From Escherichia coli (GTDB lineage: Bacteria > Pseudomonadota > Gammaproteobacteria > Enterobacterales > Enterobacteriaceae), in assembly GCF_003019035.1 (NCBI RefSeq), contig NZ_CP027447.1: 64,000 bases of DNA; one strand, given 5' to 3'. Numbering within the stretch: position 1 is the stretch's first letter; each line of letters begins with the position of its first letter. Under the pieces are notes generated by a model. It did not search any database. It saw nothing but the letters and a program-made list of their open reading frames with translations, and had not been told where the DNA came from. Made by a program: the position numbers and the translations under genes. Shown one piece after another: positions 8,549 to 14,223 of this stretch.

Positions 8549-9601
8549 ATGAAAAATACTGTAAAAATAAACAGTGTTGATTTAATCAACGCTGATTGCC
8601 TGCATTTTATTCAGTCCCTGCCTGATGATTCCATTGACCTGATTGTTACCGATCCGCCTTACTTCAAGGTGAAACCTAACGGTTGGGACAATCAGTGGAA
8701 AGGGGACGAAGATTACCTTAAGTGGCTGGACCACTGTCTGGCCCAGTTCTGGCGGGTGTTAAAACCTGCCGGAAGCCTTTACCTGTTCTGTGGGCATCGC
8801 CTGGCATCTGATATTGAGATCATGATGCGTGAACGTTTCAACGTGCTTAACCATATCATCTGGGCGAAGCCGTCCGGACGTTGGAATGGGTGTAATAAAG
8901 AAAGTCTGCGCGCATATTTTCCTGCCACAGAGCGCGTTCTGTTTGCTGAACATTACCAGGGGCCATATCGCGGCAAAAGTGACGGCTATGCGGCAAAAGA
9001 AAGGGAACTCAAACAGCACATAATGGCACCGCTGATATCGTATTTCAGGGATGCTCGTGCCGAACTGGGTATAACGGCAAAACAAATTGCCGAAGCCACA
9101 GGTAAGAAAAATATGGTTTCCCACTGGTTTGGTGCCAGTCAGTGGCAGTTGCCGAATGAGGCTGACTATCGGAAGTTACAGGCACTGTTTTCCCGTATAG
9201 CGGCAGAGAAGTTTCAGGAACAACAACTGGAACAACCACACCACCAGCTGGTGGCATCTTATGATTCACTGAATCGCAAATATTCTGAATTGCTGGATGA
9301 GTTTAAATCTCTCCGGCGCTATTTCTCCGTATCAGTCTCCGTGCCTTATACCGATGTCTGGACGCATAAGCCCGTTCAGTTCTACCCGGGTAAACATCCG
9401 TGCGAGAAACCGGCGGATATGCTCCGGCAAATAATCAATGCCAGTAGTCGACCTGGTGATCTGGTTGCTGATTTCTTTATGGGATCCGGTTCCACAATAA
9501 AAGCAGCAATGGCGCTGGGGCGTCGGGCGTTAGGTGTTGAACTTGAGTCAGAGCGGTTTAATCAGACGGTGAAAGAGGTAAGTGAACTGGTGGGGAAATA
9601 A
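8549..9601 (+). CDS. DNA methyltransferase (N6-adenine/N4-cytosine, beta-class)
   Basis: 350 aa; catalytic DPPY motif (IVTDPPYF) near the N-terminus and AdoMet-binding FxGxG (DFFMGSGST) near the C-terminus. Confidence 0.85.
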   Translation: MKNTVKINSVDLINADCLHFIQSLPDDSIDLIVTDPPYFKVKPNGWDNQWKGDEDYLKWLDHCLAQFWRVLKPAGSLYLFCGHRLASDIEIMMRERFNVLNHIIWAKPSGRWNGCNKESLRAYFPATERVLFAEHYQGPYRGKSDGYAAKERELKQHIMAPLISYFRDARAELGITAKQIAEATGKKNMVSHWFGASQWQLPNEADYRKLQALFSRIAAEKFQEQQLEQPHHQLVASYDSLNRKYSELLDEFKSLRRYFSVSVSVPYTDVWTHKPVQFYPGKHPCEKPADMLRQIINASSRPGDLVADFFMGSGSTIKAAMALGRRALGVELESERFNQTVKEVSELVGK

Positions 9602-11106: not shown

Positions 11107-11427
11107 ATGAAAGACGGCATTTATTTTGTTGTGTTCAGAAGCGGTCATAATGATGTTGGCAATGGCACGGTCGTTGTGAAGGATAATGCGGTTAATGGTG
11201 GTGATTTTGGGTTTACCTATCAGGGGCGTGTACAAGATGGGGTATTGAAACTTCATGTATCCCGCCATAACCCTTCAGCACAAAACGTTATTGCAGGCCT
11301 TAACGATTATGTGATGGATCTCTCTGTGAGAGATATTGGGGATGGTTATTACCTTGAAGGTGGAATTGCTGGTGTTCCTGGTGCGACTCTGTCTGTACAG
11401 GCGAAATTTATCGGCAATTTGATTTAA
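11107..11427 (+). CDS. Hypothetical phage protein
   Basis: 106 aa ORF after the lysis cassette, followed by a terminator. Confidence 0.4.
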   Translation: MKDGIYFVVFRSGHNDVGNGTVVVKDNAVNGGDFGFTYQGRVQDGVLKLHVSRHNPSAQNVIAGLNDYVMDLSVRDIGDGYYLEGGIAGVPGATLSVQAKFIGNLI

Positions 11428-11441
11428 ATCGATTCTCTCCT

Positions 11442-11472
11442 AAACCGCCCACTTTCCACGGGCGGTTTTTTG
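11442..11472 (+). terminator. Rho-independent terminator
   Basis: CCGCCC-n9-GGGCGG hairpin followed by TTTTTTG. Confidence 0.7.
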
Positions 11473-11522
11473 TTGCCATTACGATGGGTAGACCAGTAGT
11501 AATGATTGAAGGAGAAATTTAA

Positions 11523-11873
11523 ATGCCCCCACGAACCCCAAAAGCCTGCCGTGTTCGCGGCTGCCGCCATACCACCACTGACCCGTCAGGCTATTGCGAA
11601 AGCCACAAAAGCGAAGGCTGGAAGCAATACAAACCTGGACAATCCCGTCATCAGCGCGGCTACGGTTCGAAGTGGGACAGTATCCGCGCGCGTGTCCTGA
11701 AGCGTGACAAAGGCCTGTGTCAGTTATGTCTGCGTTCTGGTGTGGTGCGTGAGGCGAAAACTGTTGACCACATCATCCCTAAAGCGCATGGCGGCACTGA
11801 TGCTGACAGTAATCTGCAGAGTCTGTGCTGGCCGTGCCATAAGGCGAAGACGACCCGTGAACGGTTAAAGTGA
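11523..11873 (+). CDS. HNH endonuclease (terminase-associated)
   Basis: 116 aa; paired Cys and His motifs (CRVRGC...C ... DHIIPKAHGG ... CWPCH); sits directly upstream of the small terminase. Confidence 0.8.
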   Translation: MPPRTPKACRVRGCRHTTTDPSGYCESHKSEGWKQYKPGQSRHQRGYGSKWDSIRARVLKRDKGLCQLCLRSGVVREAKTVDHIIPKAHGGTDADSNLQSLCWPCHKAKTTRERLK

Positions 11874-11998
11874 TAATAATTCTCAACTGTCTGAGGGGAG
11901 GGGCGGGTCAAATCCCTGTGACCTGACGTCTTCCGGACTGCCCGCCCCATCGTTTTTTTATACCCGCGAAAAATGAAATTTAACCAGGAGTGCCGCAT

Positions 11999-12493
11999 AT
12001 GGCTGGAACGACGGGGCGTTCCGGGCGTCGCCCCAAGCCAACGGCGCGCAAGGCGCTGGCCGGAAATCCCGGCAAGCGAGCCCTGAACAAAGATGAACCT
12101 GTTTTTACGCCCATCAAAGGTGTTGAGCCACCGGAGTGGTTCGCTGAAGAAGATCTCCCTCTCGCCACGATCATGTGGCAACTGACAACCAAAGAACTCT
12201 GCGGTCAGGGCCTGCTGTGCGTGACTGACCTCGCGGTGCTTGAGCGGTGGTGCGTGGCCTACGAGTTCTGGCGGCGTGCCGTGAAAAATATTGCCAGACA
12301 GGGCAACACCATCACCGGTGCAATGGGTGGCATGGTCAAAAATCCGGAGCTGACCGCCAAGAAAGAACAGGAGTCCGAGATGAGCAGCACGGGGGCAATG
12401 CTCGGACTCGACCCCAGCATCCGCCAGCGTCTGATTGGCCTGGCGGGGCAGAAGAAAGCCACTAACCCGTTTCTGAAAATCATCGAATCATGA
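11999..12493 (+). CDS. Terminase small subunit
   Basis: ~165 aa from ATG 11999 (SD AGGAG); position before the large terminase. Confidence 0.75.
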
Positions 12494-14223
12494 GCCGGAA
12501 ATCTTACCCCAACGTAAATGCTGCCAATCAGTATGCCCGGGATGTCGTGCGCGGAAAGATTGTGGCCTGCCAGTTTGTGATTCAGGCCTGCCAGCGCCAT
12601 CTTGATGACCTGATGGCGGAAAAAAGTAAGTCGTTTCGTTACCGCTTCGACAAGGACCTGGCTGAACGGGCCGCGAAATTTATTCAGCTGTTGCCACACA
12701 CCAAGGGGGAGTGGGCATTCAAGAGGATGCCCATCACGCTGGAACCGTGGCAGCTCTTTGTGATCTGCTGTGCGTTTGGCTGGGTCAATAAAGGCTCCCG
12801 GCTGCGCCGCTTCAGGGAGGTGTATACCGAAATCCCCCGTAAGAACGGCAAATCGGCAATCTCTGCCGGTGTTGCCCTGTATTGTTTTGCCTGTGATAAC
12901 GAGTTTGGCGCGGAAGTGTATTCCGGTGCCACGACAGAGAAACAGGCGTGGGAAGTCTTTCGCCCGGCGCGACTGATGTGTAAACGCACACCCATGCTGA
13001 CGGAAGCGTTCGGGATTGAGGTTAACGCCTCAAACATGAACCGTCCGGAGGATGGCGCGCGGTTTGAACCGCTGATCGGTAACCCCGGTGATGGTTCATC
13101 ACCCCACTGTGCCGTGGTGGATGAATATCACGAGCACGCCACCGATGCGCTTTATACCACGATGCTTACCGGGATGGGCGCGCGACGTCAGCCACTGATG
13201 TGGGCCATTACTACTGCCGGGTACAACATTGAGGGGCCGTGCTACGACAAGCGGCGGGAAGTTATCGAGATGCTCAACGGGTCGGTACCCAACGATGAAC
13301 TGTTCGGGATCATCTATACCGTTGATGAAGGTGACGACTGGACCGACCCGCAGGTGCTGGAAAAAGCCAATCCAAATATTGGCGTGTCGGTTTATCGCGA
13401 ATTTTTGTTAAGTCAGCAGCAGCGTGCGAAAAATAACGCCCGTCTGGCAAACGTCTTTAAAACAAAACACCTCAATATCTGGGTGTCGGCGCGTTCGGCG
13501 TATTTCAACCTGGTGAGCTGGCAGAGCTGCGAGGATAAATCACTGACCCTTGAGCAGTTCGAGGGGCAGCTGTGCATTCTGGCCTTTGACCTGGCGCGTA
13601 AGCTGGATATGAACAGCATGGCGCGACTTTATACCCGCGAGATTGACGGTAAAACGCATTACTACAGTGTGGCCCCGCGTTTCTGGGTACCGTATGACAC
13701 GGTGTACAGCGTCGAGAAAAATGAAGATCGACGGACAGCCGAACGCTTTCAGAAATGGGTGGAAATGGGCGTTCTGACCGTTACCGATGGTGCGGAGGTG
13801 GATTATCGCTATATCCTCGAGGAGGCCAAAGCGGCGAACAAAATCAGCCCGGTCAGTGAGTCACCCATCGACCCCTTCGGGGCGACCGGGTTGTCACATG
13901 ACCTTGCTGATGAAGACCTGAATCCCGTCACTATCATTCAGAACTACACCAACATGTCCGACCCGATGAAAGAGCTGGAAGCGGCAATTGAATCGGGGCG
14001 CTTTCATCATGATGGCAATCCCATCATGACCTGGTGTATCGGCAACGTGGTCGGCAAAACCATTCCGGGTAACGATGATGTGGTGAAGCCCGTCAAAGAG
14101 CAGGCGGAAAACAAAATCGATGGTGCAGTTGCGCTGATTATGGCGGTTGGCAGAGCCATGCTGTACGAGAAAGGAGACACGTTGTCTGACCACATTGAGT
14201 CCTATGGGATCCGCTCGCTTTAA
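12490..14223 (+). CDS. Terminase large subunit
   Basis: 577 aa; ATPase-like N-terminus and nuclease-like C-terminus; ATGA overlap with the small subunit. Confidence 0.9.

Follow-up and report, generated by a model that had tools for sequence, protein, structure and literature searches.

The segment between positions 11874 and 11998 of the window (the whole 64,000-nt stretch of Escherichia coli contig NZ_CP027447.1 analyzed here) is very probably the cos site of an SfV/SfI-type temperate myovirus prophage with HK97-type packaging, which includes a P27-family small terminase (TerS), a large terminase (TerL) and an accessory HNH endonuclease. Judging by its sequence, the site belongs to the HK97-type, HNH-assisted cos family and appears to be effectively the same as the published SfI/SfV cos. 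The sequence-only reading had proposed a cos region between the HNH and TerS genes, had pointed to a GC-rich inverted repeat in it and had suggested that the segment also serves as a terminator. The cos part of this proposal stood, while the hairpin as a hallmark of cos and the terminator did not. The cos site as such is already known; the added value of the comparison presented here is modest and consists of a family-wide, apparently modular layout with a conserved upstream element, the G-box.

The intergenic gap between the HNH and terS open reading frames is 125 nt long (11874–11998). Upstream of cos lies the gene of a packaging-associated HNH endonuclease (116 aa, 11523–11873, + strand; Pfam PF01844, E 1.6e-16). 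Downstream, on the same strand, lie the genes of the P27-family TerS (164 aa, 11999–12493, with the ATG at 11999; PF05119, E 4.9e-20) and of TerL (577 aa, 12490–14223; PF03354 and PF20441). The Shine-Dalgarno sequence of terS, AGGAG (11986–11990, + strand), is located 8 nt before the ATG at 11999 and is kept in relatives. Pfam searches gave the order HNH (PF01844), TerS (PF05119), TerL (PF03354/PF20441), portal (PF04860) and S78 prohead protease (PF04586), all five being full-length ORFs. This order is the one expected of an HK97-type cos and is common to the HK97, D3, phiP27 and SfI records.

The region is 96–98% identical to the Shigella phages SfV, SfI, SfII and SfIV (Megablast), and about 70–80% of window positions 1–25000 match SfV and two isolated E. 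coli phages, vB_EcoM-689R6 and vB_EcoM-720R4, with 96–97% identity. The SfV/SfI-type cos module was found in 1222 of 5426 complete E. coli genomes. The PGAP annotation gives no feature at the cos site. Other roles of the segment were considered as well. ARAGORN detected no tRNA or tmRNA gene in the window, and an Rfam search of 11874–11998 with E up to 1 returned no match; the T-loop-like GGGTCAAATCCC is accordingly part of no tRNA. A scan for sigma-70-like promoters found none within or near 11874–11998, so the promoter reading of the segment was dropped. An IHF site at TCAAATCCC was rejected by inspection, as relatives show TCAAAAGT or TCGAAAGT without TTR at the right distance.

Several features of the neighboring prophage late region were noted separately. 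A 350-aa DNA methylase (PF01555, N6_N4_Mtase, E 1.3e-42) is encoded at 8549–9601, upstream of the lysis genes. A GrlR-family ORF (11107–11427) occupies a low-GC patch (0.37–0.45) between the lysis genes and the HNH gene. It is directly followed by a canonical intrinsic terminator (11442–11474, hairpin 11442–11468; AAACCGCCC, 9 nt, GGGCGGTTTTTT; −14.8 kcal/mol, z = −3.36), which was missed by a simple terminator scan because of its 9-nt loop. This ORF looks like a moron carrying its own terminator.

The cohesive end in the window can be located by homology to a mapped one. The virion DNA ends of SfI were sequenced directly and compared with the prophage, which revealed a 10-nt gap, 5'-TGCCCGCCCC-3', and SfI packaging was assigned to cos by its authors (PMC3636060). 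SfIV was reported to have the same cos as SfI (PMC3851460). This 10-mer occurs once in the window, unchanged, at 11939–11948 (+ strand). The linear SfI record stops at ...CTGCCCGCCCC, which corresponds exactly to window position 11948 (record end ...GGACTGCCCGCCCC, restart GTCGTTTTTTT). The 10-nt 'cos-site' of the phiP27 GenBank record, CGCCCGCCCC, aligns to the columns of 11939–11948, and the record ends of HK97 (...GACCGCCGCCAAA/GTTTGAA, the slash marking the end) and D3 (...GGACACCGCGCCCCCA/GGTCTTT) both fall at the homologous junction. Comparison with the cos sites of HK97-like phages, which the sequence-only reading had in view, thus gives strong support to its placement of cos between the HNH and TerS genes of an HK97-type module.

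Record boundaries within the SfV group differ. The SfV record (U82619.2) starts at the equivalent of window position 11932, i.e., 7 nt upstream of the SfI-mapped end, the SfII record (KC736978.1) at 11874 and the SfI record (JX509734.1) at 11949; among them, only the SfI boundary agrees with the mapped cohesive end. The SfV cos was termed only 'postulated' in the SfI paper (PMC3636060).

By analogy, the cohesive end in the window is predicted to have 3' polarity, since run-off sequencing of SfI gave a gap and no overlap, and HK97 ends carry a 10-nt 3' overhang (PMC11331095; PMC9410871, Figure 1 legend). The Discussion of PMC9410871 mentions '10-nt 5' overhangs' for lambda and '12-nt 3' overhangs' for HK97, the numbers apparently being swapped; the HK97 overhang was taken here as 10 nt, consistent with PMC11331095. 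The SfI gap and the HK97 polarity together would place the bottom-strand nick between 11938 and 11939 and the top-strand nick between 11948 and 11949. With such a cut, the virion genome would have its right end on the HNH side and its left end on the terS side.

Conservation around the cut was assessed at two depths. For the deep comparison, one genome per species was scanned with a TerS alignment, which yielded 80 loci (TerS 42–98% identical) from Enterobacterales, Pseudomonas, Burkholderiales, Moraxella and others. A scan of IMG/VR with the TerS alignment returned only loci 98–99% identical, which were used for microevolution and are useless for deep comparison. When anchored on one motif, 78 of the 80 species loci align almost without gaps and share the same layout with fixed spacing.

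This layout is composite, and all its elements are given on the + strand. The upstream element, the G-box GAGGGGAGGGGCGGGTCAAATCCC (11893–11916), has the consensus GGGGAGGGG(C/G)(G/A)GGGTC(A/G)AA; G11901 and G11902 are invariant, and G11903, A11911 and A11912 are at least 90% conserved among 58 non-redundant relatives. It is followed by a spacer of variable sequence (low column information in 81 relatives) with a fixed length of 18 nt (11917–11934). Directly 5' of the cohesive end stands the conserved GGAC (11935–11938), with A11937 and C11938 at least 90% conserved. The conserved flank on the other side of the cut, ATCG and a T7 run (11949–11959), includes the invariant T11956 and at least 90% conserved T11955 and T11958. 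The downstream box ACCCGCGAAAAATGAAATTT (11962–11981), a candidate cosB-like TerS site, lies 14–33 nt downstream of the predicted top-strand nick. Conservation peaks at the G-box, at AC 11937–11938 with the C-rich end, at the T-run 11955–11959 and, most strongly, at CCGCGAAA. The latter (11964–11971, +16 to +23 from the cut) is found within ACCCGCGAAA(A/T)(A/T)(T/G)AAATT and tracks TerS relatedness; CCGCG 11964–11968, A11970 and A11976 are invariant in the 58 non-redundant sequences. In the species loci found via the TerS protein, the downstream box is kept in 78 of 80.

Among 42 haplotypes with TerS at least 98% identical, positions 11935–11998 are almost invariant, and the spacer and the 3' end of the HNH gene vary freely. 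This pattern reflects strong purifying selection on the cos core among close relatives. A 5.6-kb contig labeled 'MAG: Bacillota bacterium' (JAEWTL010000102.1) encodes a TerS 98% identical to that of the window and has an almost identical cos region; most likely, it comes from an enterobacterial prophage and was mis-binned with the Bacillota MAG.

Some loci depart from the common layout. In Pseudomonas punonensis, P. argentinensis, PA15 and phage PotUPM1, the cut region is the variant GACCGCCCGAACGACGGGGGGAGCC/AAATTT, where the sequence directly before the T-run is G-rich and no longer C-rich, so that this subgroup may have another cohesive end. In the Vibrio phage pVa-2 (656–1495 of its locus; TerL 68% and TerS 48% identical to those of the window) and in Vibrio injensis, a gap of only about 6 nt separates the HNH gene from terS. 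The layout of G-box and CCGCGAAA was sought up to 1.5 kb upstream in both Vibrio loci and was not found, so their cos, if any, would lie elsewhere. In the Staphylococcus phage phiSa2wa_st78 (TerL 29%), a G/C island CGCCGGGTACCGGCGGGGGCCC is located between HNH and terS (1029–1136 of its locus), and this segment contains no G-box/TCAAA element. The difference of phiSa2wa_st78 indicates that the layout is specific to a proteobacterial lineage and not universal among HNH-cos phages.

The GC-rich inverted repeat with a loop of about 33 nt and a subsequent T-run, as described in the sequence-only reading, is exact. Its arms, GGGGCGGG (11900–11907, + strand, within the G-box) and CCCGCCCC (11941–11948, + strand, within the cohesive end), are 8 nt long, 100% complementary and 33 nt apart, and after ATCG the T7 run occupies 11953–11959. 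With the SfI 10-mer at 11939–11948, the 3' arm makes up eight of the ten cohesive-end bases. Perfect 8-bp inverted repeats with loops of 3–40 nt number 110 in the window versus about 42 in first-order Markov simulations, and those with all-G/C arms number two versus 0.0. The pair GGGGCGGG/CCCGCCCC is the sole G/C-rich repeat on the + strand of the window with T6 within 14 nt. As RNA, the hairpin 11896–11960 has an energy of −26.8 kcal/mol (z = −2.18; 6 of 200 shuffles as good); the fold of the entire intergenic segment is unremarkable against shuffles (z = −0.64).

The complementarity is not maintained in relatives. An 8-bp complementary run is present in only 3 of 79 distinct relatives; the typical run is 4–5, the same as in mismatched pairs of loci. 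The longest complementary run averages 4.94 within loci versus 4.89 across loci, and the pairing of the G-arm with the C-arm has −18.39 kcal/mol within loci versus −18.25 kcal/mol across loci (p = 0.26; range over the pairing tests 0.26–0.31). No covariation was detected in the stem in the 58-sequence alignment (paired cells 68.8% versus a shuffled mean of 71.0%; score 0.189 versus 0.190), 50 of the 58 sequences do not keep the central C-G pair, and RNAalifold yields no consensus pairs. C11904 and G11905 vary in 6–7 of the 42 close haplotypes without a compensating change in the 3' arm. The repeat is thus real and locally unusual but corresponds to no conserved structure in relatives. It is best seen as an apparent by-product of a G-rich box facing a C-rich cohesive end, without a functional hairpin. 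As a hallmark of cos it turned out to be incidental, its 3' arm being the cohesive end and its 5' arm part of the separate G-box.

Two further symmetries were observed around the cut. A longer inverted repeat (11943–11954 and 12007–12018; 12 nt, 92% complementary, 52 nt apart) joins CGCCCC/ATCGTT to TerS codons 3–7; in SfV and SfI it is likewise 11/12 complementary, with another mismatch. As a cos element it was rejected and is treated as probably incidental, because its second arm consists of TerS codons and is missing in the Pseudomonas group. Within 11950–11976, a weak inverted repeat (TCGTTTTTT ... AAAAATGA), made up of the T-run and the A-run, encloses the invariant CCCGCG core. Such A/T tracts flank the core in many relatives too and may reflect DNA bending around the predicted TerS site.

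It is unlikely that the hairpin and the T-run constitute, possibly in addition to cos, a Rho-independent terminator that ends the HNH transcript or blocks non-antiterminated read-through into the head genes in the lysogen. The stability of the hairpin 11896–11960 and the U7 run after it would be consistent with such a role. The G-rich and C-rich elements and the T-run recur in almost every relative, and whichever G-arm and C-arm are combined, their pairing has about −18 kcal/mol, so the potential to form a hairpin followed by U's is general to these sites. However, instead of a short loop and an immediate U-tract, the structure has a 33-nt loop and a stem set off from the U-run by four nucleotides (AUCG); nor is the site called by the consensus terminator scan. 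The stem is not maintained either, given the lack of covariation and of RNAalifold pairs and the equality of within-locus and cross-locus pairing; the changes in the 5' arm of close relatives go uncompensated, and the intergenic segment as a whole folds like its shuffles. A canonical terminator is already available upstream (11442–11468), and, as established for lambdoid phages, the late operon has to read through cos for head-gene expression. The terminator part of the sequence-only reading is therefore unsupported, the hairpin not being conserved in relatives, and nothing in the sequences compared points to selection for a terminator. Weak termination at the site may occur, since these cos sites generally combine G- and C-rich arms with subsequent T's.

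It is highly improbable that the inverted repeat itself is the recognition feature of cos, acting as a cruciform or hairpin or as symmetric half-sites for a dimeric nuclease. The arms are perfectly complementary in the window phage, in SfV/SfI and in phiP27, and the 3' arm coincides with the cut site. But the full 8-bp run is confined to 3 of the 79 distinct relatives, the usual 4–5 being that of mismatched pairs; both boxes are retained in HK97, D3 and the Klebsiella phages, where they are not complementary; and the conserved TCAAA makes the G-box asymmetric, having no counterpart beside the C-rich arm. Equally improbable is headful (pac) packaging, or a decayed prophage remnant in which the segment has no present packaging role, even though prophages are often defective. 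SfI packages from cos and its ends are defined, in contrast to Sf6 and SfX, which are pac phages (PMC3636060, PMC3851460). The HNH, TerS, TerL, portal and protease ORFs are full-length, the 96–97% matches to isolated phages vB_EcoM-689R6 and vB_EcoM-720R4 and to SfV extend over about 70–80% of window positions 1–25000, and the cos core is under strong purifying selection in close relatives.

Comparison with the sites of more distant phages reveals that the two halves of the layout are retained differently, a pattern drawn from a handful of lineages. The CCGCGAAA box is retained where TerS is at least 45% identical (phiP27, Moraxella Mcat18) and is swapped for another sequence where TerS identity is at most 32%. 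The latter applies to D3 (TerL 46%, HNH 51%, TerS similarity not significant; TTTCCATTTCCACAGAATTT), PotUPM1 (TerL 47%, HNH 35%, D3-type TerS; TTTCCATTTCCGCAAAAT), HK97 (TerL 26%, HNH 38%, no TerS similarity detected; CTAACCCGATTTTTTT), Kp4880-2 (TerL 36%, HNH 66%, TerS 32%; ACACCGCCGCAGG) and Klebsiella 020009 (TerL 54%, no HNH found, TerS 25%; GCGCGTGAGAAAT). In phages related by TerL but having a different TerS, the G-box and the C-rich end occur at the same spacing. The G-box is also found in Kp4880-2, Klebsiella 020009 and PotUPM1, whose TerS differ, and persists with the TerL/HNH lineage down to 26% TerL identity. D3, Kp4880-2 and Klebsiella 020009, with TerS of other types, likewise carry a T-run at about +3 to +11. 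The GGTC/GATC of the G-box begins 43 nt before the top-strand end, which is the record end in the phages, both in HK97 and in the window; in D3 this distance is 42 nt.

In HK97, the minimal TerS site CTAACCCGATTTTTT is located at +15 to +29, and its A-tract is essential (PMC11331095). TerS bound to this site was proposed to stall the motor so that TerL, aided by the HNH protein gp74, which stimulates cos cleavage, cuts cos (PMC11331095, PMC9410871). The TerS of the window shares the HK97 TerS fold. From the mapping of the HK97 site and the pattern linking box and TerS, the downstream box 11962–11981 can be considered a candidate TerS binding site, and reading of the G-box with the cut-site flank would fall to TerL and HNH. 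The G-box itself could be a candidate cosQ-like element or a nuclease-positioning site. The HK97 packaging papers PMC11331095 and PMC9410871 make no mention of a G-box.

The following scheme could be suggested for the window prophage. The terminase complex would cut concatemers with a 10-nt stagger around TGCCCGCCCC (11939–11948), the nicks between 11938 and 11939 (bottom strand) and between 11948 and 11949 (top strand) producing 10-nt 3' overhangs. The site would act as a composite with fixed spacing: the G-box (11893–11916), the 18-nt spacer, GGAC with the C-rich end, ATCG with the T-run, and ACCCGCGAAAAATGAAATTT. A TerS ring could bind the downstream box, as HK97 TerS does at +15 to +29, and stall the motor, after which TerL and HNH would cut; the G-box and the cut-site flank would be recognized by the TerL/HNH part of the machine. 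A broader generalization is put forward tentatively, with rather less than even confidence: the proteobacterial HK97-type cos would consist of two modules. The upstream half, consisting of the G-box GGGnGGGTCAAA, the C-rich cut site with its AC flank and the T-run, would evolve jointly with TerL and HNH and act in the manner of lambda cosQ plus cosN. The evolution of the downstream box, ACCCGCGAAAAAT in the window, would be coupled to that of TerS. Located about 33 bp from the bottom-strand nick, the G-box would be an element not dissected before, which positions or licenses the second nick at the termination of packaging.

For the window itself these results matter little, as its prophage carries the standard, experimentally characterized cos of the SfV/SfI group. 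Exact genome-end coordinates help to linearize and annotate such prophages, and the G/C-rich inverted repeat should be viewed with caution and not be read as a terminator. The comparison of about 80 species provides a testable map of the bases important in HK97-type cos, including the conserved upstream G-box. A further suggestion from it is that an exchange of TerS and its downstream box as a pair could redirect packaging specificity, which is relevant to satellites and to the engineering of cos-based transduction.

Among known systems, the closest are the cos sites of the serotype-converting Shigella phages SfI, SfV, SfII and SfIV (Sun et al. 2013, PMC3636060; Jakhetia et al. 2013, PMC3851460), which have the same position between HNH and terS and the identical TGCCCGCCCC. 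SfI differs from the window by two mismatches in 11893–11998 (at 11915 and 11949), and its TerS and HNH are identical to those of the window at 161 of 164 and 112 of 116 residues, respectively. SfV differs by two mismatches over the full 125-nt intergenic segment. Position +1 is A in the window and SfV and G in SfI. The window copy is an integrated prophage known from its sequence, whereas the SfI ends came from virion DNA, and the window has a GrlR-like moron upstream of HNH, unlike the SfI/SfV-group systems.

In the Stx2e phage phiP27 (AJ298298, misc_feature 'cos-site'), the layout is the same, with the G-box GGGGAGGGGCGGGTCAAATCCC, the end CGCCCGCCCC, a T-run and the ACCCGCGAAA box. Its TerS belongs to the same Pfam family as that of the window, a family named after phiP27. 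TerS is 48% and HNH 79% identical to those of the window, the first base of the 10-mer is C instead of T, and the spacer differs. D3 (NC_002484; TerL 46%, E 1e-170; HNH 51%) has the G-box GGGGTGGGGCGGGTCAAAACC and the C-rich end ...GGACACCGCGCCCCCA at the same spacing as in the window. Its TerS, however, is unrelated by sequence, and its downstream box is TTTCCATTTCCACAGAATTT instead of ACCCGCGAAA. The D3 overhang is 9 nt long. HK97 is more distant, with TerL (gp2) 26% and HNH (gp74) 38% identical and a TerS without detectable sequence similarity. Its TerS box CTAACCCGATTTTTT at +15 resembles ACCCGCGAAAAAT at +14 in the window but differs in sequence and offset, and its intergenic stretch from HNH to cos is much longer.

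A lambda-type cos was rejected for the window, where TerS is of the P27 family (PF05119), HNH is present and the end is a 10-nt one of the HK97 type. The overhangs of lambda are 12-nt 5' ones, its TerS is of the gpNu1 type and uses IHF-assisted R sites, an HNH protein is absent, and there is no sequence similarity. The tripartite logic of its cosQ–cosN–cosB is nevertheless alike, with a cut site, a downstream small-terminase site beside the terminase genes and a separate upstream element. Lambda cosQ is reported to be required for bottom-strand nicking at termination (Cue and Feiss 1998), and the G-box could, purely hypothetically, be regarded as its analog.
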